Virus record (IMG/VR): IMGVR_UViG_3300042402_003388
Coordinates: 36,551 to 100,550 of that record
Source: a virus
Length of the DNA stretch: 64,000 nt
Strand: one strand, 5' to 3'
Below are positions 2,984-15,829 of this stretch, one piece after another (positions within the stretch are counted from its first letter, which is position 1; each line of letters begins with the position of its first letter). Position numbers and translations under genes: made by a program. The notes under the pieces were generated by a model. It was given only the letters and a program-made list of their open reading frames with translations. It was not told the origin of the DNA and did no database searches.

Positions 2984-3035
2984 TTGATTGTTTATTATAA
3001 ATAGATAAAAAAAAGGAGGGTAATTTTTCCTGTGG

Positions 3036-3063
3036 AAAAGGAGGTCATTTGACCTCCTTTTTT
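3036..3063. terminator. bidirectional intrinsic terminator
   Basis: AAAAGGAGGTCA-TT-TGACCTCCTTTTTT between convergent genes. Confidence 0.85.
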
Positions 3064-3067
3064 CATT

Positions 3068-3742
3068 TTACCCCTTCTTAGATTTTACGATTTCATCAAT
3101 GATACCGTAATTAAGTGCCTCTTGTGAAGATAACCATAAGTCACGACTTGCATCTTTCATTACCTGTTTTGCCGTTTTATCACAGTAACTACCAAGTAAT
3201 TCAAATAGAGTCTCGTTGATTTTTTTCCATTCTTTCATATCGATTTCCGCATCTTGGATATTTCCACGGAATCCCCCTGAAGATTGGTGTAACATTGTTC
3301 TTGAGAAACGTAATGAAGAACGTTTTCCTTTAGTACCTGCACCTAACAATACTGAACCCATTGACGCCGCCATACCTGTGTTTACTGTACGGATATCACA
3401 TTTAATGTAATCCATTACGTCAACCATACTTAGACCTGATTTAACCGACCCACCTGGACTGTCAATGTGCATTGTGATGTCTGTACTGTCAGCAGAATCC
3501 AAGAACATTAACTGAGCTTGAACAATAGTTGACATATTATCATTAACCTCACCCGCAACCCATAAGATACGGTCTCTCATTAATCTTGAGAAGATGTCAA
3601 TTTGAGTTGCTCTCATTTCTCTTTCCTCCAAAATGTATGGAGTCATTGAATTCTCAATTTGTTTTGAGTAGTAATCCAAATGACTTGATGGTTTATACAA
3701 GTGTTTCGTGTAATACGATTTAAATTCTTTTGCGTTATCCAT
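3068..3742 (-). CDS. clpP: ATP-dependent Clp protease proteolytic subunit
   Basis: DIFSRLMRDRI, IDSPGGSV, GMAASMGS (catalytic Ser), TMLHQ (His), RDLWLS...YGIID. Confidence 0.97.
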   Translation of the reverse strand: MDNAKEFKSYYTKHLYKPSSHLDYYSKQIENSMTPYILEEREMRATQIDIFSRLMRDRILWVAGEVNDNMSTIVQAQLMFLDSADSTDITMHIDSPGGSVKSGLSMVDVMDYIKCDIRTVNTGMAASMGSVLLGAGTKGKRSSLRFSRTMLHQSSGGFRGNIQDAEIDMKEWKKINETLFELLGSYCDKTAKQVMKDASRDLWLSSQEALNYGIIDEIVKSKKG

Positions 3743-3761
3743 AGTTAAATTTTAAATTTAG

Positions 3762-3841
3762 TATCAGAGGAGGGACTCGAACCCTCACGCCGTAGCATAT
3801 GCTCCTAAGGCATACGTGTCTACCAATTCCACCACTCTGAT
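3762..3841 (-). tRNA. tRNA-Leu(TAG)
   Basis: ATCAGAG/CTCTGAT acceptor stem, CT-TAG-GA loop, long variable arm, GTTCGAGTC. Confidence 0.93.
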
Positions 3842-3844
3842 ATT

Positions 3845-4050
3845 TGGCCCCACCTGAGATTACGGTGAGTAGATATTCCTAGTTTTTCCTATTGAAAAAC
3901 CCTGCGTGTCTTACCACTTAAAACGTCAAACATACTCGGTGGATTTGTTACGTCCAGGCTCCGACGAACCCCCTCTCTAAAGTCGTGGAAGGCGACAACT
4001 ATAACATCTTGAAAGAACGTTACCAAACTTTCAGAGTATCTCTTACTCTT
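3845..4050 (-). ncRNA. possible structured RNA between the two tRNA-Leu genes
   Basis: Non-coding, GC-richer than genome, local hairpins, boxA variant GTTCTTTCAA at 4009-4018. Confidence 0.35.
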
Positions 4051-4052
4051 AG

Positions 4053-4138
4053 TACTCGGGGCGGGAATCGAACCCGCACGGACCTTACGGTCCATCAGAT
4101 TTTAAGTCTGACGTGTCTACCTATTCCACCACCCGAGC
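4053..4138 (-). tRNA. tRNA-Leu(TAA)
   Basis: GCTCGGG/CCCGAGT stem, TCAGA-CT-TAA-AA-TCTGA, long variable arm. Confidence 0.95.
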
Positions 4139-4140
4139 GT

Positions 4141-4165
4141 TTCAAAGAACTATGGTACAAATGTA
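4141..4165 (-). promoter_or_regulatory. Bacteroidota -7 element (TAcaTTTG) followed by boxA (GTTCTTTGAA)
   Basis: Minus strand reads TACATTTG-taccata-GTTCTTTGAA directly before tRNA-Leu(TAA). Confidence 0.7.
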
Positions 4166-4180
4166 CGAAAGAAATTTCAA

Positions 4181-4678
4181 TTAATCAAATCCCATCGAAC
4201 TTTTATATTCAATCCACACACGTTCAATTGAATTATTTAGAACATCTGAGAATAAGGATGGTTCATATGGTTTTGCCCTCATATTCAAACCCGCTTCTTG
4301 TGGTGTTCTGTCTGCTTTGTATAAATTACACTTATGACAACAAGTTACCAAGTTACTCCAAGTATTCTTACCACCCTTTGATTTTGGTATAACGTGGTCT
4401 AACGTTAATTGTTTTGTTGAACCACAATAAACACATTCTCCATTATCTCTTCTGTAAATTCTATTTCTGTTAACCCTAATATTCCTAACTCTGTATTTTA
4501 CATACTTCAATAGACGAATGATTAATGGACGAACAAAATTTTGATAACCTGCATAGATAGGGTTGTCGGAACTCTTTAAGATTTCCGCTTTACCTTTAAA
4601 CACTAACTTAAAACCTCTTTGAGGTGAAGTTACGTTTATTGGGGTATAATCCGAATTTAATACTAATACTCTATCCAT
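4181..4678 (-). CDS. HNH endonuclease (McrA/HNH_5-like)
   Basis: RDNGECVYCG...LTLDHVIPKSKGG...NLVTCCHKCNLYK. Confidence 0.93.
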   Translation of the reverse strand: MDRVLVLNSDYTPINVTSPQRGFKLVFKGKAEILKSSDNPIYAGYQNFVRPLIIRLLKYVKYRVRNIRVNRNRIYRRDNGECVYCGSTKQLTLDHVIPKSKGGKNTWSNLVTCCHKCNLYKADRTPQEAGLNMRAKPYEPSLFSDVLNNSIERVWIEYKSSMGFD

Positions 4679-4713
4679 AACTGTGCAAATTTAATACATT
4701 TTTTTTATAAAAC

Positions 4714-4743
4714 AAAAAAAGGTCACAATTTCTTGTGACCTTT
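4714..4743 (-). terminator. attenuator terminator of leader 3
   Basis: AAAGGTCACAA-GAAA-TTGTGACCTTT plus U-tract; left arm can alternatively pair with GTGACCTT in the leader ORF (4797-4804). Confidence 0.85.
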
Positions 4744-4771
4744 CTTTTATACGTTTTTAGTTTAACTAATC

Positions 4772-4876
4772 TTATTTTTGTTTATCTAAACCGCGTAAGG
4801 TCACTATACCATTGCCACATAACGATGTGATAATGTTATCCTGTATCAAAAGACCTGTGTTGTTATACGTTTTCAT
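4772..4876 (-). CDS. putative leader peptide 3 (34 aa, MKTYNNTGLLIQDNIITSLCGNGIVTLRGLDKQK)
   Basis: Short ORF absent from the ORF track, TATTTAT motif upstream, overlaps antiterminator segment; Leu codons CTT, TTG, TTA x3. Confidence 0.65.
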   Translation of the reverse strand: MKTYNNTGLLIQDNIITSLCGNGIVTLRGLDKQK

Positions 4877-4908
4877 AAATTACGGTTTTCTTTCTTATAA
4901 ATATGTTC

Positions 4909-5733
4909 CTATTCTGAAACCGCCCTACCTTTTAAAGATTTCCAATCTTGTTCAGGACGAACTTCTAAATTAGTTTTCCAAGCCGACTCTAATACGTTCA
5001 TATTACAACCTACTTCTTTAGCCATAGTAATTAACGCATTTATATCCTTTGGGAAACAAGTTCCACCAAAACCTAATTTACCATCAGGACCTGGAACGTG
5101 TAAATGGGAATCCCCAATTCTACCATCGGAAGCAAACCCGTAAAGAGCGTCTTCCCAATTAACACCAATTAATTGACTTAATCTATAATATTCATTCATC
5201 AGACTAACTTTTGCCGCGAAGAATGTGTTATTCATATATTTCACAAACTCAGCAGTTTTGGAATCAGTGTGAATGATGTGTCTATTCATAAATCGGTCGT
5301 TGAATAATTCCTCAACTTGTTTAGTTAACGATGGTTCACCTCCTAAAATAATTCTTGCCTGTGTTAACATATCTAACTTGGCAGTTCTCTCAGTTAAAAA
5401 CTCAGGTGAAAATATAATGTTATGACCGTATTTTTTAATTAAAGAGTCGGTAGTACCTGGTAATACGGTTGATTTGATAATGAAAATAGTATTTTCATTG
5501 TAAATAATGTTACCGAAAAAGTCTTCAATAAATGAAATATCTTGAGACCCATCACTGAACATTGGGGTTGGTAAACATACAAAAATAAATTCTTGTTCCA
5601 TTACTTCTTCTAATGTGTGAGTAGCCTTTAACGGATTAATGTCGTAAACTTTAACATCTGATGTTGGGCTAAATGCGAATGCAATAGTTTCCCCAACAAA
5701 ACCATTACCTATTACTCCTACTGTTTTTTTCAT
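4909..5733 (-). CDS. UDP-glucose/GDP-mannose dehydrogenase family (lacks C-terminal domain)
   Basis: GNGFVG Rossmann motif, IKSTVLPGT, SPEFLTE, KYMNN, GFGGTCFPKD. Confidence 0.93.
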   Translation of the reverse strand: MKKTVGVIGNGFVGETIAFAFSPTSDVKVYDINPLKATHTLEEVMEQEFIFVCLPTPMFSDGSQDISFIEDFFGNIIYNENTIFIIKSTVLPGTTDSLIKKYGHNIIFSPEFLTERTAKLDMLTQARIILGGEPSLTKQVEELFNDRFMNRHIIHTDSKTAEFVKYMNNTFFAAKVSLMNEYYRLSQLIGVNWEDALYGFASDGRIGDSHLHVPGPDGKLGFGGTCFPKDINALITMAKEVGCNMNVLESAWKTNLEVRPEQDWKSLKGRAVSE

Positions 5734-5786
5734 ATTATTTATTTAAAAATTATTATACATATAATTATAATAAGAAAAATAATTAA

Positions 5787-6272
5787 ATGAATAGTGAAGT
5801 AAATTACGAATCTTTTGGGGGGTGGGCCATCTCAAGAAAACTGTTTGAATGGATTTTAAACCATTTACCGAAAGGAAGTACAATACTTGAACTAGGTAGT
5901 GGTAATGGTACTAAAGAGTTAGTTAAATTCTACAATGTGTATAGTGTGGAACATAACATTGAATGGGTTAATTTGGTTCCCGAATCTACGTATATTTACG
6001 CCCCTTTAATTAATGGATGGTATGATGTTGAAATTTTAAAACAAGAATTACCGACTCACTATGATTTACTACTTATCGACGGTCCAATAGGTAAAAATAG
6101 GGTTAATATTATTAATCATTACAAAATGTTTAAAACTGATATACCTATAATTATTGATGATACTAATCGTGAAGATGATAATAACCTTTCAATATTTTTA
6201 AGAAAAACCCTAAATAAAAAAGCATCACTATCTGTGACCTGTGAAGATAAAATATTTACAATTATTTACTAA
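5787..6272 (+). CDS. class I SAM-dependent methyltransferase-like
   Basis: ILELGSGNG, LLLIDGP, IIIDD. Confidence 0.75.
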   Translation: MNSEVNYESFGGWAISRKLFEWILNHLPKGSTILELGSGNGTKELVKFYNVYSVEHNIEWVNLVPESTYIYAPLINGWYDVEILKQELPTHYDLLLIDGPIGKNRVNIINHYKMFKTDIPIIIDDTNREDDNNLSIFLRKTLNKKASLSVTCEDKIFTIIY

Positions 6273-6976
6273 TGGAGGAAAATGAAAAATACGACTTTTG
6301 TATTGTTATTACGACATATGAAAGAGAGGATATGTTAAAACAGTTACTGAAAGATATTTTTGAATACACTGAATATAAAATGTATGTGGTCGTTTTTGAT
6401 GATGGAAGTAAACACCCTTATGACTTAAGTGAGTATGACGTAAAATATGTTAAATATGTAAAAAATAATGGGTTAAAGAATCTTTGGAGAGTGATAAGCG
6501 ACACTTTTAAATTTTGTAAAAATATAGACGCTAAGTATTATTTCTATTTTCAGGATGATTTGCGTCTGAAAAAAAACTTTTTCCAAGAAAGTATTAGAAT
6601 TTTTGAAAATATCCCTGACGAGAATAAAATTAGTTTAGGGACATTAATGATTGACACCCAAAGAAACATACCTAAATGGACGGGAGTTTATCCAATTGAG
6701 TATGACGAATATTATAAAACACAATGGTGTGAGTTAGTTTTTATGTGTGAATACAAGTTTTTCGAATCTTTAGAATTTAAACTTAACCCAATACCTATGT
6801 CAAGATGGGATAAAAATCCTAATAATAGTAGCGGTGTTGGTCAACAAATTAGTGTTAGATTATTTGAAAAAGGTTTAAATATGTATCACGTAATTAATAC
6901 ATTAACCACTCACGGTGACCACGAGTCTGTAATATTACCCGAACTTAGAAAAAATGAAAAATTAATTGCAATATAA
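6272..6976 (+). CDS. GT2-family glycosyltransferase
   Basis: IVITTYER, VFDDGS, YFQDD. Confidence 0.85.
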   Translation: MEENEKYDFCIVITTYEREDMLKQLLKDIFEYTEYKMYVVVFDDGSKHPYDLSEYDVKYVKYVKNNGLKNLWRVISDTFKFCKNIDAKYYFYFQDDLRLKKNFFQESIRIFENIPDENKISLGTLMIDTQRNIPKWTGVYPIEYDEYYKTQWCELVFMCEYKFFESLEFKLNPIPMSRWDKNPNNSSGVGQQISVRLFEKGLNMYHVINTLTTHGDHESVILPELRKNEKLIAI

Positions 6977-6990
6977 AATTTAAAAATAAT

Positions 6991-8757
6991 ATGGATAAAA
7001 TAATATATAATGTTGCAAGCTATAAAAGAGGAGATACTTTAATAAAAACTATACAATCAATTTATAATCAATGTGATATTATCAACGTTGCACTTAATGA
7101 TTATGATGAAATACCTGTTGAATTGTACGATAAAAAAATAAATTTATTTATTACGGATAATGACAGAGGGGATGCGTATAAATTTTATAAATTAATGAAT
7201 TCTGAGGGTTATTATTTCACAATTGATGATGATTTAATATACCCCGAAAATTATACCGAATATATGGTTGATAAAGTTAATCAATATGGTAAAAAATCGA
7301 TAATTACACAACACTCAAGAAGTTTTAATTCATTTCCTATTAATAATTTTTATGGTCGTAATACCTTAGTTAATCATTTTAAACAACTACAAACTAACGA
7401 TATTAAAGTTCAATTTGGAGGTACTGGTGTTATGTGTTTTCACACTGATTTATTTAAAGTACCTATTGAATATTTTGATAGACCAAATATGGCTGATGTG
7501 TGGATTGGTAAATACGCAAAAGAAAATGATATTGATATTATATGCGTCAAACATAATAGCGGGTTTGTAGTACAACAAAATTTTGAGGACTCAATATATA
7601 CCTCCGATTCCAAAAATGATACAATTCAGACAATTTTGACTAACGACTGTTATATGGATAAGGAAGTGTCGATAATCATACCTACATTTGATAATGTTGA
7701 ATATATTCAAGAATGTTTAGATTCCGTAGTATCCTCGTGTTCTATGATTAATAACTTTGAAATATTGGTAGGTATCGACTATTGTCCAAAAACTTTAAAA
7801 TTTATAATGGAAAATAGTTTTGACTATCGAATAAGATTTTATTTTTTTAATGACAATGTCGGTCCGTATATCATTAAAAATTCATTATCAAGAATTTCTA
7901 AATCGGATAATATAATTTTTTTTGATTCTGATGATGTTATGGATAAAGATATGGTTAGTGAGGTTTTGTTAGGACTTAAAACTTCAGAATGTGTTAAACC
8001 AATGTTTCATAATTTTACTAATTATATTGATTATGACGACCCAAAATATAACTTAGAAACTAAGTTATTTGGTGAAGGGGTATTCGGAATTAAAAAAAAT
8101 ATTTTTTTAAATTTTAACGGGTTTGAAGGGTGGAGATGTGCCGCGGATTCTGACTTTATGGTTAGAATTCAAAAAAATGGAGTAACATTTAATTGGGCTA
8201 AAAAATTATTGTTTTACCGAAGAATACACGATAAAGGTTTAACAACGATTCCTGAAACTAATTATGGGTCTAAATTACGTAAACATTATATTGAGTTAAC
8301 AAATTCAAAAACAAATTTTGGGCCACTGGATGAAATGAAGATTTCGGATTTTACAAGAATTTATACTAAAACAGAAATAACTAAAATTAGTTATCGTAAT
8401 ATTATACCGACCAAACCTGTAATTGAGACTCCACAACATAGTACTGAGGATACTTTAAAACAAGTTTATTCTAAAAGTACGGTTATCGATAATAAAGTTA
8501 AACCAATTAATACTGAGGATAAAATTCTATCTAAATCAATTGAAAAGTCGGATAATAGTACAGTAGAAGATATTCGTAAAAATGTTTTATCATTATTGTC
8601 TGATAAAAAAGTTGTTAAAAAAATTGATAAGGATTTGATTGACCAAAAAAGACAAAATAGTAGAGATGTTGTAATACCGTATACAATTCAACCTGTTAAA
8701 AAGACCAGTAGAACGAGTGGGATTAACACAAAAAGAGGGGGAGGATTTAATTTTTAA
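6991..8757 (+). CDS. two-domain GT-A glycosyltransferase
   Basis: TIDDDLIYP in first domain; SIIIPTFD and FFDSDD in second. Confidence 0.85.
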   Translation: MDKIIYNVASYKRGDTLIKTIQSIYNQCDIINVALNDYDEIPVELYDKKINLFITDNDRGDAYKFYKLMNSEGYYFTIDDDLIYPENYTEYMVDKVNQYGKKSIITQHSRSFNSFPINNFYGRNTLVNHFKQLQTNDIKVQFGGTGVMCFHTDLFKVPIEYFDRPNMADVWIGKYAKENDIDIICVKHNSGFVVQQNFEDSIYTSDSKNDTIQTILTNDCYMDKEVSIIIPTFDNVEYIQECLDSVVSSCSMINNFEILVGIDYCPKTLKFIMENSFDYRIRFYFFNDNVGPYIIKNSLSRISKSDNIIFFDSDDVMDKDMVSEVLLGLKTSECVKPMFHNFTNYIDYDDPKYNLETKLFGEGVFGIKKNIFLNFNGFEGWRCAADSDFMVRIQKNGVTFNWAKKLLFYRRIHDKGLTTIPETNYGSKLRKHYIELTNSKTNFGPLDEMKISDFTRIYTKTEITKISYRNIIPTKPVIETPQHSTEDTLKQVYSKSTVIDNKVKPINTEDKILSKSIEKSDNSTVEDIRKNVLSLLSDKKVVKKIDKDLIDQKRQNSRDVVIPYTIQPVKKTSRTSGINTKRGGGFNF

Positions 8758-8765
8758 AAATAAAA

Positions 8766-8796
8766 TTTGACTTTTTACGTTACATACGTATATTTA
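8766..8796 (+). promoter_or_regulatory. near-consensus Bacteroidota promoter for leader 1
   Basis: TTTG(8766)-N19-TATATTTA(8789). Confidence 0.55.
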
Positions 8797-8819
8797 ATTA
8801 AAAACAAGTAAAACTGCAA

Positions 8820-8894
8820 ATGAAAACAACACATATCATACTAATAGGCGGGACAGATAGAACTGAAGCGACTACTCCAATGGAGATGGTGTGA
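8820..8894 (+). CDS. putative leader peptide 1 (24 aa, MKTTHIILIGGTDRTEATTPMEMV)
   Basis: Short ORF between promoter and terminator; codons match tRNA array 9015-11322. Confidence 0.8.
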   Translation: MKTTHIILIGGTDRTEATTPMEMV

Positions 8895-8918
8895 TATTCC
8901 TATACTATGAATTCACTG

Positions 8919-8947
8919 AACCCATCTCCAAAAGAGATGGGTTTTTT
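8919..8947 (+). terminator. attenuator terminator of leader 1
   Basis: AACCCATCTC-CAAAA-GAGATGGGTT-TTTT; CCATCTCCA (8922-8930) alternatively pairs with TGGAGATGG (8881-8889). Confidence 0.88.
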
Positions 8948-8967
8948 GTTTTTAGATTGTTAAACAT

Positions 8968-8998
8968 TTTGTTCTTTGAAATATTGGTTGTATCTTTG
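8968..8998 (+). promoter_or_regulatory. boxA (GTTCTTTGAA 8971-8980) overlapping a Bacteroidota promoter (TTTG-N19-TATCTTTG)
   Basis: Direct motif match; same boxA precedes five RNA-gene units. Confidence 0.7.
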
Positions 8999-9014
8999 TA
9001 AAAGATTTAAAAAT

Positions 9015-9086
9015 GGTCCCTTCGTCTATCGGTTAGGACATATCCCTTTCACGGATAAAAGACGGGTTCGATTCCCGTAGGGACTA
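9015..9086 (+). tRNA. tRNA-Glu(TTC)
   Basis: TATCC-CT-TTC-AC-GGATA, cloverleaf. Confidence 0.95.
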
Positions 9087-9107
9087 CAAAACTTAAAAAA
9101 TATTATT

Positions 9108-9371
9108 ATGCCAGAATTTAACACTTATGTTGATGTAGACGTTTACGAATTTATTGATGAATGTTCAAAAAGTGAAATTAATGAGTTAATTGACGATTTA
9201 ATTGATAGGGGTTACTTAAACAAAAATAGTAAAGGGGTTGGTAAACCACCGAAATATTCATTAATTGAGGAAACTCATAGAGATTATTGTGATGTTTTGG
9301 CGAATTCTTACCATAGAATGAGTAAGGAAGACGAAGAAACAATCGCGAATATTGCTAAAAAATATTCGTAA
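9108..9371 (+). CDS. hypothetical protein
   Basis: 87-aa ORF with phage-like codon use between tRNAs. Confidence 0.7.
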   Translation: MPEFNTYVDVDVYEFIDECSKSEINELIDDLIDRGYLNKNSKGVGKPPKYSLIEETHRDYCDVLANSYHRMSKEDEETIANIAKKYS

Positions 9372-9378
9372 TAAAAAT

Positions 9379-9452
9379 GGGGGTGTATGTCTCAAGGCCG
9401 ACGAGAATGATTTGCAATCAATCTGGGGTGAGTTCGATTCTCACCATCTCCA
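9379..9452 (+). tRNA. tRNA-Ala(TGC), atypical D arm
   Basis: GGGGGTG/CATCTCC with G3:U70 Ala identity pair, loop TT-TGC-AA, GTTCGATTC. Confidence 0.85.
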
Positions 9453-9456
9453 CAAT

Positions 9457-9547
9457 GTTATCATAGCTCAGTAGGATGAGGCCGCAATCGGATTCCTTTA
9501 AACAACGCGTGAGGGGCGGCTTTCACGATGTGGCTGAAGTGATAACA
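9457..9547 (+). ncRNA. tRNA-like RNA lacking a T arm
   Basis: GTTATCA/TGATAAC+A acceptor-like stem, TAGCTCAGTAGG D-like arm, internal helices, no TTCR loop. Confidence 0.5.
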
Positions 9548-9557
9548 AATAATATAT

Positions 9558-9629
9558 CGCGGGATAGAGCAGTGGTAGCTCGCAAGGCTCATAACCTTGA
9601 GGTCGGGGGTTCGAATCCCTCTCCCGCAA
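9558..9629 (+). tRNA. tRNA-fMet(CAT)
   Basis: C1:A72 mismatch, CAAGG-CT-CAT-AA-CCTTG. Confidence 0.92.
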
Positions 9630-9638
9630 CTAATATAT

Positions 9639-9712
9639 CGTGGGTTAGACTGGAGGTGGTTCCAGCTTGGTCTCATAAGCCAAAGACGGGGGTTCGAGTC
9701 CCTCACCCGCAA
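9639..9712 (+). tRNA. second, divergent initiator-type tRNA-Met(CAT)
   Basis: C1:A72 mismatch, TTGGT-CT-CAT-AA-GCCAA, extended D stem CTGGA/TCCAG. Confidence 0.8.
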
Positions 9713-9790
9713 CAAAGTGTCTCGGTCCGCTCTGACGAAAGTTAACGACGAGGTCTCGGTAGACAGAACGCGTCTGATTCTACCCAAAAT

Positions 9791-9863
9791 GCGAGAGTAG
9801 CTCAGTTGGTAGAGCACAACCTTGCCAAGGTTGGGGTCGCGGGTTCGAATCCCGTCTCTCGCT
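9791..9863 (+). tRNA. tRNA-Gly(GCC)
   Basis: Canonical cloverleaf, TT-GCC-AA. Confidence 0.97.
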
Positions 9864-9872
9864 CAATAATAA

Positions 9873-9945
9873 GCGGATATCGTATAATGGCTTATTACTT
9901 CAGCCTTCCAAGCTGAAGATGTGAGTTCGATTCTCACTATCCGCT
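9873..9945 (+). tRNA. tRNA-Gly(TCC)
   Basis: TCAGC-CT-TCC-AA-GCTGA. Confidence 0.96.
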
Positions 9946-9950
9946 CAAAA

Positions 9951-10023
9951 GGTCCCGTGGTTGAATGGTTACAATTCCACCCTGTCACGGTGCGAGGTAC
10001 GGGTTCGAATCCCGTCGGGACCG
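9951..10023 (+). tRNA. tRNA-Asp(GTC)
   Basis: CT-GTC-AC loop, G73. Confidence 0.92.
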
Positions 10024-10031
10024 CAAACTTT

Positions 10032-10103
10032 GGTCTATTCGTTCATCGGCTAGGATGCTACCCTGTCACGGTAGTGAGGAGGGTTCGATTCCCTCATAGA
10101 CCG
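10032..10103 (+). tRNA. tRNA-Asp(GTC), second variant
   Basis: CTACC-CT-GTC-AC-GGTAG, G73. Confidence 0.94.
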
Positions 10104-10133
10104 CAAAAATAAATTAATTTATACTTATTGAGT

Positions 10134-10292
10134 ATGGATAAAGAAAAATGGGATTCTGATGAATGGCAAGGGCGTTCTAAAGACAGGGTCGAAAAAAACA
10201 ATAAAGTTTTTGGATACTCTATATTACTTACAATACTTGGTACAGTAATTTGTTATTTATACGTCATAATATCCACTTATTTTAGATTTTGA
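10134..10292 (+). CDS. small membrane protein (52 aa)
   Basis: MDKEKWDSDEWQG... with C-terminal hydrophobic stretch; below ORF-track cutoff. Confidence 0.6.
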   Translation: MDKEKWDSDEWQGRSKDRVEKNNKVFGYSILLTILGTVICYLYVIISTYFRF

Positions 10293-10342
10293 TTTGTTAT
10301 TTCGTAAAAAATTTACTAAATTTGTAGTGTAAATAAAATATT

Positions 10343-10519
10343 ATGTGGGTAATTGTAAAATTAATGGAAAGTCTTAATGGTGTTAAAGTTCCTGTCATTA
10401 TCTTAGATGGACACTCAGAAATTTGGGAATTTGAAACTGAAGAAGAGGCGGTTAAAATGAGAGACATTTTTTCTAAAAACTCGGACTCAGGTCACGTTTA
10501 CTTAGTTAAAAAAGTCTAA
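10343..10519 (+). CDS. small hypothetical protein (58 aa)
   Basis: MWVIVKLMESLNG...; TAAATTTG promoter element at 10317-10324. Confidence 0.65.
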   Translation: MWVIVKLMESLNGVKVPVIILDGHSEIWEFETEEEAVKMRDIFSKNSDSGHVYLVKKV

Positions 10520-10524
10520 CAAAT

Positions 10525-10598
10525 GGTTCCGTAGCTCAGCTGGATAGAGCAACTGCCTTCTAAGCAGTAGGTCACAGGTTCGAATCCTGTCGGGACTA
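10525..10598 (+). tRNA. tRNA-Arg(TCT)
   Basis: ACTGC-CT-TCT-AA-GCAGT. Confidence 0.97.
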
Positions 10599-10613
10599 CT
10601 AAATTAAAAAATT

Positions 10614-10868
10614 ATGGTTGATATTAATCAAGATATTGTATTTGAGGAAGAACATAATGAGTTTATTAAAAGTGAGTTATTCTGTCAAATGATGAAAGAA
10701 AAAATAGAACATTCTGCGTATCATAAATTTGATGGTATTGCACCTGAAGGATTTACGTTGGTACCAAATGAGGTGTTAGAAGAACTTAAGGACTTTGACA
10801 ATTGGAAGGAGTTTAAATACGATTTAGAATGGATTAAGAAAAATTCTATAAAGTATTTGGTAGTTTAA
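10614..10868 (+). CDS. hypothetical protein
   Basis: 84-aa ORF. Confidence 0.65.
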   Translation: MVDINQDIVFEEEHNEFIKSELFCQMMKEKIEHSAYHKFDGIAPEGFTLVPNEVLEELKDFDNWKEFKYDLEWIKKNSIKYLVV

Positions 10869-10885
10869 CTTATAAAAAATAATAT

Positions 10886-11164
10886 ATGAAAAAATTTGCA
10901 CCATACGTATTAGTACTTATTTGGTTTTTAGTTATTGGGTTATTGGCGTTCTTATTGACAGGATGTAAAAATAAGAATAAAATAGAACCTGGTGATAAAG
11001 TAGTTAAATGTGTAATTGATAGTGTTTCAACTGAAGGACCTCGTTCAACTATTGAACCGTATGTAAGATATTATTACTATACCAAATGTGGTGAAAGACT
11101 TATTACCAATCGAGATGACATTTACAAAATTGGGGACACGATAACTTACGTATATAAAAAATAA
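10886..11164 (+). CDS. putative lipoprotein
   Basis: MKK + hydrophobic stretch + LTGC lipobox. Confidence 0.7.
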   Translation: MKKFAPYVLVLIWFLVIGLLAFLLTGCKNKNKIEPGDKVVKCVIDSVSTEGPRSTIEPYVRYYYYTKCGERLITNRDDIYKIGDTITYVYKK

Positions 11165-11169
11165 AATAA

Positions 11170-11242
11170 GCCTCCTTAGCTCAGCTGGTAGAGCACTTCA
11201 CTTGTAATGAAGGGGTCGTAGGTTCGAATCCTACAGGAGGCT
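11170..11242 (+). tRNA. tRNA-Thr(TGT)
   Basis: CTTCA-CT-TGT-AA-TGAAG. Confidence 0.97.
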
Positions 11243-11248
11243 CAAATT

Positions 11249-11322
11249 GGTCCTTTAGCTCAGTTGGTTAGAGCAGCTCACTCATAATGAGAAGGTCACA
11301 GGTTCAAGTCCTGTATGGACCA
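11249..11322 (+). tRNA. tRNA-Ile2(CAT, lysidine type; reads ATA)
   Basis: GGTCCTT acceptor with C4:G69/C5:G68, CT-CAT-AA, GTTCAAGTC T loop as in bacterial Ile2. Confidence 0.85.
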
Positions 11323-11343
11323 CAAATATCTAAAAACACAAAT

Positions 11344-11511
11344 ATGCAACTTATATTCAATATTATCGCAACAATTGTATTCCTAATCTTTGGGATTATA
11401 TGGAGTAAGAAAACGTTCACAGACATTATAGCCAAAATAATTTGTCTTGGTTTATCCATTTTAGGAATTATTCTAATTTTGATACAATGCGGGTATATTA
11501 TTAAAAAATAG
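11344..11511 (+). CDS. small two-TM membrane protein
   Basis: Start at MQLIFN; upstream part of track ORF overlaps a tRNA. Confidence 0.65.
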   Translation: MQLIFNIIATIVFLIFGIIWSKKTFTDIIAKIICLGLSILGIILILIQCGYIIKK

Positions 11512-11526
11512 TCATATATTTGTACT

Positions 11527-11802
11527 ATGAAAAGTTACCTGATTATTAGAGAGGATTATTTTAATGAAAAAGGAATTGGTAACAATACTCATTTCTGTAT
11601 TAAAGAATCTAAAAAATTTTTATGGTTTGAATGGTGGTCGTACGTGAAATACAAAGAATGTTACGAAAGTGGTTCATATAACACTGTTTTAAAGTTCACT
11701 AATTTATATGAAGCAGAAAAATTTGTTAATGAAGTTTTGTTAAAAAACGGACCAAGACAAAAATGGTCATCTATGACCCTAAAAGAAATAAAAGAAAAAT
11801 GA
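11527..11802 (+). CDS. hypothetical protein
   Basis: 91-aa ORF after TATATTTG element. Confidence 0.65.
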   Translation: MKSYLIIREDYFNEKGIGNNTHFCIKESKKFLWFEWWSYVKYKECYESGSYNTVLKFTNLYEAEKFVNEVLLKNGPRQKWSSMTLKEIKEK

Positions 11803-12386
11803 AAACGATATTTTTAGACCACGATGGAGTAATCTGTTTATCCACAGAGTGGGGTGGTCGTTACAAGAAACAAAAAAAATGGGGAGAACTTAAAATGTCT
11901 ATGGGGATGAATGAAATCCCTATTGAATTTAGATTTGACAATTTTAATAAGAAGGCAATCAAAATTCTGAATTCAATTATTGAAGAAACTGGTGCTGAGA
12001 TAGTAGTTTCATCTGATTGGAAACGATGGGCAACTGTTGAGGAAATGGGACAATACTACGAATCTCAAGGGATTATCAAAAAACCAATCTCATTTACTCC
12101 AAACTTAAGTGAATGTAATAACTATGATGGTTCATTTCCTTGGAATAGAGATTGGGATTTAGAACAAACTCGTACATTAGAAATTAACCAATATTTGAAG
12201 GACCATCCTGAGGTGACAGAATGGGTTGCAATCGATGACCTTAATATGGGAAAAGAGGGGATGTCATATTCAATTAAATGGGTTCACGATTGGGGTTTAG
12301 ATAATTTTGTACTAACACCAAAAGGTAATGAAGGGTTAAAACAATCAGGAATTAAAGAAAAAGTTTTATCTTTTTTAATAAAATAA
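11799..12386 (+). CDS. HAD-family phosphatase (RNA-repair 'Swiss Army Knife' HAD_SAK_2-like)
   Basis: IFLDHDGVI, IVVSSDWK, WVAIDD. Confidence 0.8.
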   Translation: MKTIFLDHDGVICLSTEWGGRYKKQKKWGELKMSMGMNEIPIEFRFDNFNKKAIKILNSIIEETGAEIVVSSDWKRWATVEEMGQYYESQGIIKKPISFTPNLSECNNYDGSFPWNRDWDLEQTRTLEINQYLKDHPEVTEWVAIDDLNMGKEGMSYSIKWVHDWGLDNFVLTPKGNEGLKQSGIKEKVLSFLIK

Positions 12387-12393
12387 AAAAATA

Positions 12394-12424
12394 TTTGACA
12401 ATTACGGAATTTTTCGTAACTTTG
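12394..12424 (+). promoter_or_regulatory. consensus Bacteroidota promoter for leader 2
   Basis: TTTG(12394)-N19-TAACTTTG(12417). Confidence 0.8.
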
Positions 12425-12469
12425 TAGTAATTATAGAAACAGGTAGAAATACCACAACAAATAGAAAAA

Positions 12470-12580
12470 ATGAAAAACACTAATAAACATATGAACGTCG
12501 TGATTTGGAAACAACAATTTAGTAATTGTTCGTATCCGCGTATTTCGCATACAAGTTCAGTTGATGAAGGTTTAGTGTAA
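12470..12580 (+). CDS. putative leader peptide 2 (36 aa, MKNTNKHMNVVIWKQQFSNCSYPRISHTSSVDEGLV)
   Basis: Short ORF between promoter and terminator; codons 6-24 sample all 15 tRNA types of array 12687-15825. Confidence 0.85.
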   Translation: MKNTNKHMNVVIWKQQFSNCSYPRISHTSSVDEGLV

Positions 12581-12614
12581 TGTAAATAAAATAACATACA
12601 ACAAATATCTCAAG

Positions 12615-12646
12615 TCCTGAACTCAAAAAGTTCAGGATTTTTTTTT
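12615..12646 (+). terminator. attenuator terminator of leader 2
   Basis: TCCTGAACT-CAAAA-AGTTCAGGA-T9; CTGAACT alternatively pairs with AGTTCAG (12554-12560). Confidence 0.9.
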
Positions 12647-12656
12647 GTTATAAAGT

Positions 12657-12666
12657 GTTCTTTGAC
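12657..12666 (+). promoter_or_regulatory. boxA antitermination element
   Basis: GTTCTTTGAC followed by ATATTGG, same context as 8971. Confidence 0.7.
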
Positions 12667-12686
12667 ATATTGGTAAGAAAAGTAAA

Positions 12687-12758
12687 CGGGGTGTAGTCTC
12701 GAGGAGAGACGCGTGTTTTGGGAACACGAGGCGGCAGGTTCGACTCCTGTCACCCCGA
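12687..12758 (+). tRNA. tRNA-Pro(TGG)
   Basis: CGTGT-TT-TGG-GA-ACACG, short atypical D loop. Confidence 0.9.
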
Positions 12759-12764
12759 CTATAT

Positions 12765-12838
12765 TGTCACATAGCTCAGTTGGTTAGAGCGTTCGCCTGA
12801 TACGCGAAAGGTCGATGGTTCGAGTCCATCTGTGACAA
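12765..12838 (+). tRNA. tRNA-Ile(GAT)
   Basis: TTCGC-CT-GAT-AC-GCGAA. Confidence 0.95.
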
Positions 12839-12844
12839 CTTAAT

Positions 12845-12919
12845 GTCTTCGTAGCTCAGTTGGTTTAGAGCACCTCACTTTTAATGAGGGAGTCACAGGT
12901 TCGAGTCCTGTCGGGGACA
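12845..12919 (+). tRNA. tRNA-Lys(TTT)
   Basis: CCTCA-CT-TTT-AA-TGAGG. Confidence 0.95.
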
Positions 12920-12925
12920 CAATAT

Positions 12926-12997
12926 GGTCGGTTGGCCGAGTGGCTTAGGCGATAGTCTGCAAAACTATCTACACAGGTTCGATTCCTGTACCGACCT
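12926..12997 (+). tRNA. tRNA-Cys(GCA)
   Basis: ATAGT-CT-GCA-AA-ACTAT, U73. Confidence 0.96.
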
Positions 12998-13002
12998 CAA
13001 AT

Positions 13003-13075
13003 ACGTCTGTAGCTCAGTTGGTAGAGCACTGGTCTCCAAAACCAGGTGTCGGTGGTTCGAATCCATCCAGGCGTG
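13003..13075 (+). tRNA. tRNA-Trp(CCA)
   Basis: CTGGT-CT-CCA-AA-ACCAG. Confidence 0.96.
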
Positions 13076-13079
13076 CAAT

Positions 13080-13153
13080 GACTCAGTAGCTCAGGGGTTT
13101 AGAGCAGTTGACTGTTAATCAACGGGTCGTAGGTTCGATTCCTACCTGGGTCG
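13080..13153 (+). tRNA. tRNA-Asn(GTT)
   Basis: GTTGA-CT-GTT-AA-TCAAC. Confidence 0.96.
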
Positions 13154-13156
13154 CAA

Positions 13157-13291
13157 TAGGTTGATTAGGGAATGATTGTACTGATAGTTCGAGAGTGAAT
13201 ACTGACTAGTACAATCGGAGTTTGCAGGTATTCACCCGAGTAATGCTAATCGTAAAAACAGATGTCCACTGAACCATCTTCTGTTTTCCTA
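13157..13291 (+). ncRNA. unassigned structured RNA with kissing-loop/pseudoknot
   Basis: GATTGTACT/AGTACAATC hairpin whose loop GTGAATAC is complementary to GTATTCAC; closing helices GATTAG/CTAATC and TAGG/CCTA. Confidence 0.6.
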
Positions 13292-13295
13292 AATT

Positions 13296-13376
13296 GGGAG
13301 TGTTGAGCAACGGTTGCTTAGCTGACTGTAAATCAGTGGTCTTACGACATTGGGGGTTCGAATCCCTCCACTCCCA
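13296..13376 (+). tRNA. tRNA-Tyr(GTA)
   Basis: GCTGA-CT-GTA-AA-TCAGT, long variable arm. Confidence 0.93.
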
Positions 13377-13382
13377 CAAAAT

Positions 13383-13411
13383 AAAAAAGGGGATATAAAT
13401 CCCCTCTTTTT
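13383..13411. terminator. bidirectional hairpin terminator
   Basis: AAAAAAGGGGAT-ATAA-ATCCCCTCTTTTT. Confidence 0.7.
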
Positions 13412-13429
13412 CGATTAGGTCGTTATCAA

Positions 13430-13594
13430 TTATTTCTGTTTAGCAATAATTGACCATACACCACCAACTAATGTAACTGCAGCTCCGATAAGTTCTTGAA
13501 CTGTTGAATCAGTTGCAAGACCTTTCATAATCAGGATACCACCCACAAAAGTAAGTGCGTGTCTAACGATACCTTGGATTTGTTCTTTAGTCAT
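13430..13594 (-). CDS. small two-TM holin-like protein (54 aa)
   Basis: MTKEQIQGIVRHALTFVGG...GGVWS; TATTTAT motif upstream; antisense insertion within tRNA array. Confidence 0.7.
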   Translation of the reverse strand: MTKEQIQGIVRHALTFVGGILIMKGLATDSTVQELIGAAVTLVGGVWSIIAKQK

Positions 13595-13650
13595 TATAAA
13601 TTTGATTAAAGGTTTATGCCAGACTATAAATATTGGAAAAACGGTCAAAC

Positions 13651-13721
13651 TGTCCTTTCGTCTAATGGCAGGACACGTGGTTTTGGTCCACGCGGTGGAG
13701 GTTCGAATCCTCCAGGGACAA
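13651..13721 (+). tRNA. tRNA-Gln(TTG)
   Basis: CGTGG-TT-TTG-GT-CCACG, U1:A72. Confidence 0.94.
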
Positions 13722-13775
13722 CAAGGGGTTAGGTGGAAACCCAAGAGTAGGTGATGAGTCTACGTCCACCAAAAT

Positions 13776-13847
13776 ACCGATGTAGCTCAGTGGTAGAGCA
13801 CTTCTTTCATACGGAAGGTGTCGGAAGTTCAATTCTTCCCATCGGTA
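13776..13847 (+). tRNA. tRNA-Met(CAT), elongator type
   Basis: ACCGATG/CATCGGT, CTTCT-TT-CAT-AC-GGAAG. Confidence 0.85.
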
Positions 13848-13853
13848 CTTAAC

Positions 13854-13928
13854 AGTTCCTTAGCTCAGTTGGTTTAGAGCACTTCTTTTACACGGAAGGG
13901 GTCGTAGGTTCGAATCCTACAGGGACTA
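13854..13928 (+). tRNA. tRNA-Val(TAC)
   Basis: CTTCT-TT-TAC-AC-GGAAG. Confidence 0.94.
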
Positions 13929-13935
13929 CAAAATG

Positions 13936-13972
13936 CCAAACTCGGTAGTAAAACACGTCCAAACTCGGTAGT
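13936..13972 (+). repeat. 14-bp direct repeat x2 (CCAAACTCGGTAGT)
   Basis: 13936-13949 and 13959-13972. Confidence 0.9.
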
Positions 13973-13983
13973 TTTAAAAAAAG

Positions 13984-14093
13984 TTTGGTGAATTGAAAAA
14001 TGTTTCATACCTTTGTATTCACAAACAACGGGGGGTAGGAGTTAGTAAGTCGGTGGCCTACCCCCCCTGAGACAAGATAGAAAGTTCTTTGAA
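13984..14093 (+). promoter_or_regulatory. promoter + GC-rich hairpin + boxA (rrn-leader-like)
   Basis: TTTG-N20-TACCTTTG; GGGGGGTAGG/CCTACCCCCC (14030-14066); GTTCTTTGAA (14084). Confidence 0.7.
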
Positions 14094-14103
14094 TTAAAAT
14101 ACT

Positions 14104-14237
14104 GATAATGGTTTTCCCCACTCAACGGATGTCGACAATCCAGAATGGAATCGGAATTCAGCACCCCCTGCCGAGGCCTCGTAAAACTACGATTAAGCAG
14201 TTAAGATTGGAGCGAGATGGGTACTCCAACATTATCA
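14104..14237 (+). ncRNA. unassigned RNA closed by acceptor-like stem
   Basis: GATAATG/CATTATC+A with adjacent TTGGAG/CTCCAA hairpin in T-arm position. Confidence 0.5.
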
Positions 14238-14242
14238 TACTT

Positions 14243-14315
14243 GGAACGGTAGCTCAGTTGGTAGAGCACTTGCCTGAAGAGCAAGGTGTCGGCGGTTCGA
14301 TTCCGCCCCGTTCCA
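14243..14315 (+). tRNA. tRNA-Phe(GAA)
   Basis: CTTGC-CT-GAA-GA-GCAAG. Confidence 0.96.
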
Positions 14316-14389
14316 CGGAGTCCTGAAATAACAGGAAACCCCCACTCCCATATGGCAGCCAGTCCATTAACCTGGTGAAGTGGGGTAAT

Positions 14390-14523
14390 AGTCGAGTGGG
14401 CGTAATGAGGGATGGTACCCGAGTCCCCAAGACCAATAGTCCCAGACACTTGTGGGTTCTATGGAGTCGTAAGGTTGTCTAATCCGTCTTGAACGGTATT
14501 CGGTTCGAGTCCGACCTTGACTA
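14390..14523 (+). ncRNA. oversized tRNA-like RNA A (134 nt)
   Basis: AGTCGAG/CTTGACT+A acceptor, TCGG-TTCGAGT-CCGA T arm, expanded centre. Confidence 0.65.
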
Positions 14524-14529
14524 CAAAAT

Positions 14530-14631
14530 AGTCAGGAGTCCATTGGTTGGAGTCACCTCCCCAAGGTTGAGTAACAGTAAGGCTGACTCTTTATGGCAAA
14601 GACGGAACAGGTTCGAATCCTGTCCTGACTA
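14530..14631 (+). ncRNA. oversized tRNA-like RNA B (102 nt)
   Basis: AGTCAGG/CCTGACT+A acceptor, ACAGG-TTCGAAT-CCTGT T arm, enlarged anticodon-position loop. Confidence 0.7.
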
Positions 14632-14847
14632 CACGAGTCGAGTAGTATACGACTAGTTTGCTCCCGAATGATGAGAAGTGGTGTTACAACCATAGGGACC
14701 TGAGCCGATTACTTGAGTCTAAGTCGGTTGGTTAGTGTACCAGTAACAGGAGTAAGTTAACACACAAGTTCTAACCCCTCACGAAATTGGTGAGTTGCCG
14801 CTGAAATTCGGTATTGGGGACAGTCAAAAATGATTGAACGACTATAT

Positions 14848-14921
14848 GGTGGTTATAGCTCAGTTGGTAGAGCACTTGATTGTGGTTCAAGGTGTCACGG
14901 GTTCGATTCCCGTTAATCACC
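14848..14921 (+). tRNA. tRNA-His(GTG)
   Basis: G-1:C73, CTTGA-TT-GTG-GT-TCAAG. Confidence 0.96.
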
Positions 14922-14927
14922 CAAAAA

Positions 14928-15015
14928 GGAGGAATGGCAGAGTGGTCGATTGCACTAGTCTTGAAAACTAGCGTACCGAAAGGTACCGTAGGTTCGAATC
15001 CTACTTCCTCCGCCA
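14928..15015 (+). tRNA. tRNA-Ser(TGA)
   Basis: CTAGT-CT-TGA-AA-ACTAG, long variable arm, encoded CCA. Confidence 0.97.
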
Positions 15016-15017
15016 AA

Positions 15018-15424
15018 GACCCCACGATTAACGGAAGTATCCGACCGTTACGGAGTGTGAACCTGACTTGAAGGCTTCAAGGCTATGGGGGAGGCAACAC
15101 AAACAAACAAGGATTCCCCATTATGGATTAAGGGGGTAAGGGGCTTTAATTAGTCGTAATACAATCCACAAGTTGTAAGAATACTGAACAATCTTACAAT
15201 ACACACTCAGCTTCCGAGTGAGACTCGCCACGTAACTTTGGGGGTAGGGTGAAGATGTTCTGAGGGTAACCCTGAAATATGGGTGAGAGTAGAAACCCAC
15301 CGTGGACGGTTACTATGGGCTAACGAATCTTAGTCATATCGGTGAGGGATACTAATGACGCCAGACTATATTAAAAACTAAAAGGTTCTCCTCAAAGGCG
15401 GAGGGACGATTCAGGACCTTTTTT
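15018..15424 (+). ncRNA. unassigned structured non-coding region ending in a terminator-like hairpin
   Basis: No ORF, GC-richer, hairpins TTGTAAGA/TCTTACAA, CACTC/GAGTG, CTTGAAG/CTTCAAG; AAAAGGTTCT...AGGACCTTTTTT at end. Confidence 0.45.
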
Positions 15425-15452
15425 AATCCTACACTTAAAAAATCTAAAATAT

Positions 15453-15656
15453 ATGACAGACAAATTACAAGAGTTGTTAGAAACATCTCAAATCGGTGAG
15501 CCCGAAATTGTTGACTTATTAAACTCAATGTACAAATTGGTTGAAACTAAATTATTTACACAGGATGAGTTCAATGTTGTGTTAGATAGGTTAGGAATCA
15601 AACAAGAAGGGAATTCCTTCATTTTTAATGAAGATATGGTTTATACCTTCAATTAA
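15453..15656 (+). CDS. hypothetical protein
   Basis: 67-aa ORF. Confidence 0.65.
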   Translation: MTDKLQELLETSQIGEPEIVDLLNSMYKLVETKLFTQDEFNVVLDRLGIKQEGNSFIFNEDMVYTFN

Positions 15657-15662
15657 AAGTAT

Positions 15663-15734
15663 AGTCCCTTGGTGTAACGGATAGCACGAAACACTACGGA
15701 TGTTTTAGTGGGGGTTCGAATCCCTCAGGGACTA
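15663..15734 (+). tRNA. tRNA-Arg(ACG)
   Basis: AAACA-CT-ACG-GA-TGTTT. Confidence 0.93.
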
Positions 15735-15739
15735 CTATT

Positions 15740-15825
15740 GGAAGATTACCCAAGTTGGTGAAGGGGCTTGTTTGCTAAACAAGTAGGACTGTAAGGTCGC
15801 GAGGGTTCGAGCCCCTCATCTTCCG
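15740..15825 (+). tRNA. tRNA-Ser(GCT)
   Basis: CTTGT-TT-GCT-AA-ACAAG, long variable arm. Confidence 0.95.
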
Positions 15826-15829
15826 CACA

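Follow-up and report, generated by a model that had tools for sequence, protein, structure and literature searches.

Why phages carry large sets of tRNA genes, and how these sets are used, is a long-standing question. The phage studied here has 29 tRNA genes on a single contig of 100,550 bp (32.7% G+C), and a short segment in front of one of its tRNA arrays (8766-8998) raises the question in a specific form: does the phage regulate transcription of its tRNA genes, and what would the signal be? An earlier note, made from the sequence alone, had read this segment as a leader peptide that samples the tRNAs of the following array (array 1), combined with a terminator/antiterminator switch. All of its sequence statements on the segment were found where it had placed them, and its core reading is supported by the layout, by the codon content and by the way in which the antiterminator tracks the terminator across phages. 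From these comparisons we put a probability of about 75% on the proposal that 8766-8953 is a ribosome-mediated (leader-peptide) transcription attenuator, which gates transcription from a promoter designated P1 into array 1.

Coordinates refer to the window, the whole 64,000-nt stretch of the phage genome that was analysed, and to its plus strand unless indicated otherwise. The genome encodes a large terminase, a portal protein and a major head protein, and the virus is therefore a tailed phage. Near-identical DNA is present in many lake-water metagenomes. The host is very probably a freshwater member of the Bacteroidota, because the promoters are of the Bacteroidota type and an 18-nt motif, described below, matches almost only Bacteroidota genomes.

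The leader of array 1 and its alternative folds

Bacteroidota-type promoters sit on both sides of the putative switch in 8766-8998, one upstream of the leader ORF and one downstream of the terminator. The upstream promoter, P1 (8766-8796), consists of TTTG/TTGACT at 8766-8772 (with TTTG at 8766-8769), a 19-nt spacer and a -7 box at 8789-8796 that reads TAnnTTT followed by A. It was also scored as TTGACT-16-TATATT, with a match of 10/12. Leader ORF 1 (8820-8894), with 24 sense codons and a TGA stop codon, follows in the 5′ leader. The ORF has no Shine-Dalgarno sequence; such sequences are mostly absent in Bacteroidota. Codons 7-17 read exactly as the earlier note gave them. The stretch from codon 7 to codon 19 (8838-8876), the putative sensor window, is cognate to array-1 tRNAs at every codon but CTA (codon 8), and 6 of the 24 codons of the ORF are non-cognate to array 1.

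An intrinsic terminator (8918-8953) lies between the ORF and the tRNA genes. Its stem of 11 pairs with the loop CAAAA occupies 8918-8944, has an energy of -16.4 kcal/mol and is followed by a T-run. The hairpin could in principle do no more than end transcription of the glycosyltransferase-like gene upstream (6991-8757), with the ORF in between being there by chance; the terminator is 160 nt beyond the stop codon of that gene, and short ORFs are common in AT-rich DNA. However, P1 lies between the gene and the ORF, and a P1-like promoter is kept upstream of all leaders that are homologous to leader 1 (class 1). Such homologous short ORFs were found at 13 other phage loci, where the frame is kept although the upstream genes differ. 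The statistics presented below, based on random peptides, on permutations and on 305 short ORFs, also oppose chance. We consider a chance ORF very improbable.

The terminator is mutually exclusive with a second helix, the antiterminator. The 5′ strand of this helix (region 2, 8881-8893) spans the final sense codons and the stop codon, where a terminating ribosome could cover it, while its 3′ strand (region 3, 8914-8930) overlaps the 5′ arm of the terminator. The perfect pairing claimed at its core is present: TGGAGATGG (8881-8889) and CCATCTCCA (8922-8930) are exact reverse complements of each other. The extension of this 9-bp helix by GTGA/TCAC appears in the minimum-energy fold, computed with RNAfold, of a nascent RNA ending at 8932, and the extended helix evaluates to -15.0 kcal/mol.

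Folding of leader 1 RNA at three lengths with RNAfold gave three states. RNA ending at 8898 folded into a helix between region 1 (8833-8843) and 8887-8897, possibly an anti-antiterminator or pause helix. RNA ending at 8932, in which the 3′ arm of the terminator is absent, folded into the antiterminator. The full-length leader RNA folded into the 8833-8843/8887-8897 helix together with the terminator. These three fold states are the four-region layout of classical attenuators. They do not fit the suggestion of the earlier note that the start codon tests fMet, because without initiation the 8833-8843/8887-8897 helix and the terminator would be left intact, and this predicts termination, not induction.

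The helices were also followed in an alignment of class-1 leaders, whose members are mutually related and are thus non-independent samples. In this alignment the antiterminator helix is 86.5% paired, compared with 41-62% when it is slid, and the terminator is 94.8% paired. One antiterminator pair, at alignment columns 69/112, occurs as UA (9), GC (3), AU (1) and GU (1). The 8833-8843/8887-8897 helix is 84.5% paired; covariation was looked for in this helix within the class-1 alignment and none was seen.

Codon content of the leaders and of the arrays behind them

Array 1 (9015-11323) contains tRNAs for Glu, Ala, Gly-GCC, Gly-UCC, Asp (two), Arg-UCU and Thr-UGU and three tRNAs with a CAT anticodon, on which ARAGORN and Rfam agree. 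Two of the CAT tRNAs are initiator-like and one is Ile2-like. The initiator-like pair adjoin each other (9558-9630 and 9639-9713), and each has a C1/A72 mismatch; by this feature of their sequences they look like initiators. The second of the two, whose D-arm is unusually long, reaches no more than 38 bits in the Rfam tRNA model. The third (11249-11323) had been taken as Ile2. It matches, over its full length and at 82.7%, genes annotated as tRNA-Ile in P1-like plasmids of E. coli, and this similarity, from which the assignment derives, supports Ile2.

Array 1 also contains small protein-coding ORFs between its tRNAs (9108-9371, 10343-10519, 10614-10868 and 10886-11164), and further coding sequence lies between the arrays (11527-12386). 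If co-transcribed, these small ORFs would share the same attenuator control.

Every tRNA type of array 1 has a cognate codon in leader ORF 1. The earlier count of 18 matching codons out of 24 stands only if 11249-11323 is Ile2 and if U34 tRNAs read every codon of a four-fold box; strict wobble removes the three ACT codons from the match, as ACT codons need four-way wobble by Thr-UGU. We compared the leaders with random peptides drawn from the codon usage of this phage. Random 24-codon peptides cover all 9 types of array 1 with P=0.007 and contain at least 18 cognate codons with P=0.0004. The match between leader 1 and array 1 thus exceeds chance. We also examined all 305 ATG ORFs of 20-40 codons in the six frames of the whole genome. 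Full coverage of the 8 elongator types of array 1 is reached by exactly one of these 305, and full coverage of the 14 elongator types of array 2 by one. In a DNA variant contig from a lake, leader 1 differs by ACA to ATA and GCG to GCA, and both codons stay cognate.

A rare-codon explanation was considered and rejected: the GC3 of both leaders agrees with expectation (P=0.32 and P=0.43), and a low mean RSCU was seen in leader 1 (P=0.017) but not in leader 2.

A second cassette of the same kind precedes array 2. Leader 2 (12394-12674) has a promoter at 12394-12424, an ORF at 12470-12580, a candidate antiterminator strand at 12554-12560, a terminator at 12612-12646 and a boxA motif at 12657-12674. 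Array 2 (12687-15826) comprises 15 tRNA types, each of which is represented in leader 2; a random 36-codon ORF covers all 15 with P=0.0004. One of its tRNAs (13776-13848, Met or Ile2) had no E. coli match. Both leaders cover 100% of the types in their own array. Of the types exclusive to the other array, leader 1 covers 36% and leader 2 covers 71%, and the off-target codons of leader 2 are located in the final codons of its ORF. The two leaders are therefore complementary and split the code as their arrays do.

The loop CAAAA and an 18-nt motif (8971-8988 and 12657-12674) are common to both leaders, as the earlier note had observed. The common ancestry that it drew from this is not upheld: the peptides form two distinct families, and only the loop, boxA and the design are shared. 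Metatranscriptome contigs from two freshwater studies span leader 2 at 12441-12592 and 12466-12659, and almost nothing was found on leader 1; these are contigs from RNA libraries, which carry no information on transcript ends, strand or level.

A third cassette lies on the minus strand (4714-4875 and 4052-4170). It comprises an ORF of 34 codons, several of them for Leu, and a terminator that is bidirectional (4714-4747); a TAnnTTTG promoter, an HNH-like gene and a pair of Leu tRNAs follow. Directly before these tRNAs lie a promoter-like box of their own and a shortened boxA core. In codon match this cassette is far weaker than leaders 1 and 2.

boxA, promoter P2 and the cassette in other phages

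The name boxA given to the 18-nt motif (8971-8988) is correct. Exact matches occur almost exclusively in Bacteroidota genomes, often directly behind tRNA-Ile and tRNA-Ala, and in five of these loci the 23S start is 34-52 nt downstream. The motif is thus identical to the spacer element of Bacteroidota rrn operons that lies just before the 23S genes, which corresponds to the known position of the spacer boxA in rrn operons; its role there has been described (PMC10250234). By analogy with the E. coli literature (PMC10250234), we infer that the phage motif would bind NusB/NusE and confer resistance to termination.

Promoter P2 (8968-8998) is located downstream of the terminator and has TTTG at 8968-8971, N19 and TATCTTTG at 8991-8998. 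It fits the pattern TTTG-N19-TAnnTTTG, and 9 matches to this pattern or to TTG-N19-TAnnTTTG are found in the window compared with 1.9 expected. The caveat of the earlier note that a promoter lies here is therefore valid. P2 is the main weakness of the attenuator reading for array 1, as a promoter of this sequence can drive attenuator-independent expression. boxA lies inside the spacer of P2, and therefore only transcripts that read through from P1 would carry it. The same overlap (the motif variant with A at position 10, then tg and a TAnnTTTG box) recurs in four other loci (L016, L034, L074 and L077).

The situation is simpler for leader 2. A promoter was sought between its terminator and the tRNAs and none was found; at leader 2 and in several relatives, the interval from the terminator to the first tRNA accommodates no promoter. 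Those arrays would therefore be expressed only by read-through, and their dependence on read-through argues that the terminators are conditional.

A scan of IMG/VR for the 18-nt motif gave at least 111 loci, mostly inside or before phage tRNA arrays. A large group of IMG/VR loci (L003, L006, L010-L012 and many more) consists of near-identical 'viral' contigs from gut metagenomes in which boxA has no tRNA context and sits behind a structured GC-rich segment. About 25 loci among the matches listed have the whole cassette, with a promoter, a short ORF starting with MK, a terminator, the motif and tRNAs, and the peptides of these cassettes form two classes. Class 1, the homologues of leader 1, has an N-terminus that is conserved in sequence and usually precedes Leu, Met, Gly, Glu, Asp, Ala, Thr and Arg-UCU tRNAs. 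The leaders of class 2 are similar to leader 2, and this class usually precedes Trp, Cys, Tyr, Gln, His, Phe, Lys, Asn, Ser and similar tRNAs; in its peptides the order of residues varies freely while the residue set of the array is kept.

A blastn search of leader 1 against GenBank phages gave no match, megablast of 8000-12000 matched tRNA genes only, and a permissive Rfam scan of 3000-16500 gave tRNAs only, with no known cis-regulatory family.

The relation between ORF and terminator holds across both classes. In 22 of 27 loci the 3′ part of the ORF contains a Watson-Crick complement, 6-11 nt long, of the 5′ arm of the terminator. In class 1 the complement ends 5 nt short of the last nucleotide of the stop codon; in class 2 this distance is mostly 12-27 nt. 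This rule spans about ten unrelated terminator stem sequences; whatever the sequence of the terminator, the 3′ end of the ORF duplicates its 3′ arm. In several loci the antiterminator strand even matches the 5′ arm better than does the 3′ arm of the terminator itself, in which G-U pairs are used. By these sequence comparisons, the predicted antiterminator strand co-changes with the terminator across phages.

We also asked how well leaders match their arrays across phages, using leaders with at least 5 downstream tRNA types. In 19 non-redundant leaders, with Met excluded, 164 of the 169 downstream tRNA types have a cognate codon in the leader. Random peptides cover 111.5 ± 5.1 of the 169 types, leaders permuted among all arrays cover 112.6 ± 7.9, and leaders permuted within their class cover 137.7 ± 4.2 (P<5e-5 for the observed 164). 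Individual loci show the same relation. Class-1 leaders with Leu tRNAs in the array have 3-4 Leu codons each, compared with one Leu codon in leader 1 of the window, where Leu tRNAs are located elsewhere. One leader (L111) has no Trp, His or Phe codons, and the corresponding tRNAs are missing from its array. Another (L016) has a Glu codon, and its array starts with Glu. Family-wide, the share of cognate codons is 76% in the middle of the ORF, compared with 52% over codons 2-4 and 46% over the final six (P=5e-8). This is the pattern expected of a sensor window that lies upstream of the antiterminator strand.

The co-variation bears on two other explanations. One is that 8820-8953 is a stand-alone small gene, encoding a micropeptide or a small RNA, that array 1 is transcribed from P2 only, and that cassette and array owe their codon match to a shared ancestry. 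The position of P2 between terminator and array would agree with this, as would the conserved N-terminus of class-1 peptides. Shared ancestry does not account for class-2 peptides, in which order is free yet the residue set of the array is kept, nor for co-variation that persists within a class. A stand-alone gene would also leave unexplained why the ORF end copies the terminator arm in unrelated terminators, and many loci have no room for a second promoter. We regard this explanation as improbable.

The other explanation accepts the switch but holds that it reports general translation capacity (ribosome availability, global starvation or host shut-off), with the ORF serving as an average mRNA. 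The leaders have one or two codons per tRNA type, with no runs as in trpL or hisL, and by the same geometry any slow-down of translation gives read-through. An average ORF, however, would not track the downstream tRNAs as these leaders do (164 of 169 types, compared with about 138 when leaders are swapped within class). The two leaders of this phage split the code like their arrays, and codons of rare types, such as Trp, Cys and Arg-CGN, appear exactly where their tRNA genes follow. We consider a sensor of general capacity unlikely, though somewhat less so than a stand-alone gene, and favour an attenuator that samples the tRNAs of its own array.

Relatives were identified by a flanking gene. 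One of them (L001; 85% amino-acid identity in that gene) has both leaders nearly unchanged. It has lost the Gly-GCC gene and retained the GGC codon of the leader. Its sole Gly tRNA (4113-4186 of that contig; the window has two, at 9791-9946) has a body that resembles the Gly-GCC gene and the anticodon TCC, and looks like an anticodon switch or a recombinant. This tRNA, with the anticodon UCC, may read all GGN codons. A second relative of the flanking gene (L002) has no tRNAs nearby.

The cultured Cellulophaga phage phi17:2 (L235), whose host is Cellulophaga baltica, has two cassettes of the same layout. Its first leader ORF (6616-6684), which is unannotated, has Gln, Arg-CGT, Leu, His, Glu and Pro codons and precedes Pro, Glu, Gln, His, Leu, Leu and Arg tRNAs. 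The second leader precedes Ala, Ile, Gly, Met, Asp, Thr, Val, Arg, Met and Tyr tRNAs and has a codon for each of the eight non-Met amino acids, a match at the amino-acid level only. This second leader probably starts at GTG 7576 (L235:7576-7659). The CDS annotated in this place, gp077 (L235:7540-7659, 39 aa), has a TTG start inside a repeated promoter sequence, and the annotation probably mis-describes the leader ORF that starts at GTG 7576.

Proposed control of the tRNA arrays and relation to known systems

From the anatomy, the alternative folds, the codon-tRNA match and the conservation and co-variation across phages, we infer that leader ORF 1 is translated, that ribosome and polymerase are coupled, and that slow decoding switches the array on. 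In this model RNA polymerase would initiate near 8803 and a ribosome would translate the 24-codon ORF. When codons 7-19 are read fast, the ribosome at the stop codon would cover 8881-8893, the terminator would fold and the transcript would end. When the ribosome stalls at a codon of Ile2, Gly-GCC, Gly-UCC, Thr, Asp, Arg-UCU, Glu or Ala, 8881-8893 would remain free and pair with 8914-8930, no terminator would form and the polymerase would run on. The read-through transcript would carry boxA, which would probably recruit host Nus factors, and the polymerase would enter the tRNA genes. P2 would add attenuator-independent expression of array 1, and leader 2 would act likewise on array 2. The outcome would be a feedback in which a tRNA block is made when its own codons are decoded slowly and is shut down when supply is adequate.

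The signal in this model would be the rate of decoding by charged tRNA, host and phage together; because host tRNAs read the same codons, the sensor would report the decoding supply as a whole. Amino-acid starvation, for which additional tRNA is no remedy, would trigger it as well. The natural trigger may be cleavage of host tRNAs, host shut-off, the codon demand of late genes or starvation.

The mechanism is of a known kind, while the regulated product and the sampling of multiple tRNA species by codons are new. Amino-acid operon attenuators include trpL, hisL and leuL and the multivalent thr and ilvGMEDA leaders of enterobacteria. The phage element resembles them in having a promoter, a short ORF with regulatory codons and a mutually exclusive antiterminator and intrinsic terminator; in both, the end of the ORF overlaps the antiterminator strand, and a 1:2 helix is possible, giving four regions. 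Amino-acid operon leaders have a codon run for one to three amino acids, whereas the phage leader has one or two codons for each of 8-15 tRNA species. The phage element also differs in that it would regulate tRNAs and not enzymes, so that the molecules sensed would be the product. It is phage-borne, is set in Bacteroidota without Shine-Dalgarno sequences and is followed by boxA.

The attenuator of pheST in E. coli, with its pheM leader, is an example in which the supply of charged tRNA controls a component of the translation apparatus. The phage element would likewise be a leader-peptide attenuator acting on a translation component, but pheST controls a synthetase, uses Phe codons only and has no tRNA genes. 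T-box riboswitches bind uncharged tRNA directly via a specifier codon, with no ribosome or ORF. They share with the phage element transcription attenuation that reads the state of tRNA; no T-box architecture was found at 3000-16500 in the permissive Rfam scan. The element also resembles rrn antitermination, which uses boxA with NusB/NusE, in that the same 18-nt motif follows both leader terminators. It differs from rrn in that boxA is in a phage and lies downstream of a regulated terminator. In full-text searches of the literature, leader-peptide attenuation was found for amino-acid, synthetase, resistance and similar genes, and none for tRNA genes.

One view of large tRNA sets in phages is that they substitute for host tRNAs lost through depletion or cleavage (PMC10264068, PMC11464382 and PMC11555353), and phage tRNA arrays have been discussed as counter-defence or supply, as in phage T5 and in evasion of PARIS and retrons. 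Term searches in these three reports, and their abstracts, gave no supply-sensing control of phage tRNA genes, and the present element would add such control to the picture of these arrays. It is tempting to go further and regard the attenuators as counter-defence sensors. If a host anticodon nuclease, or other immunity that depletes tRNAs, eliminated a single tRNA species, ribosomes would stall at the leader codon for it and the entire phage block of substitute tRNAs would be turned on; boxA would load Nus factors only onto the induced transcripts, and tRNA-rich Bacteroidota phages would use this as a general strategy. We offer this extension tentatively and think it rather unlikely to hold. 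If true, the phage would monitor a tRNA pool of ~25 species with two or three tiny ORFs.

Each tRNA block appears wired to a sensor of the decoding speed for its own codons. If confirmed, this would be the first leader-peptide attenuation that controls tRNA genes, and it would constitute a direct feedback loop on the tRNA pool. Each leader would be a natural multi-input sensor for 8-15 tRNA species and would be usable as a reporter of tRNA supply or of anticodon-nuclease activity. Since the same layout is present in the cultured pair of Cellulophaga baltica and phi17:2, the idea is directly testable.
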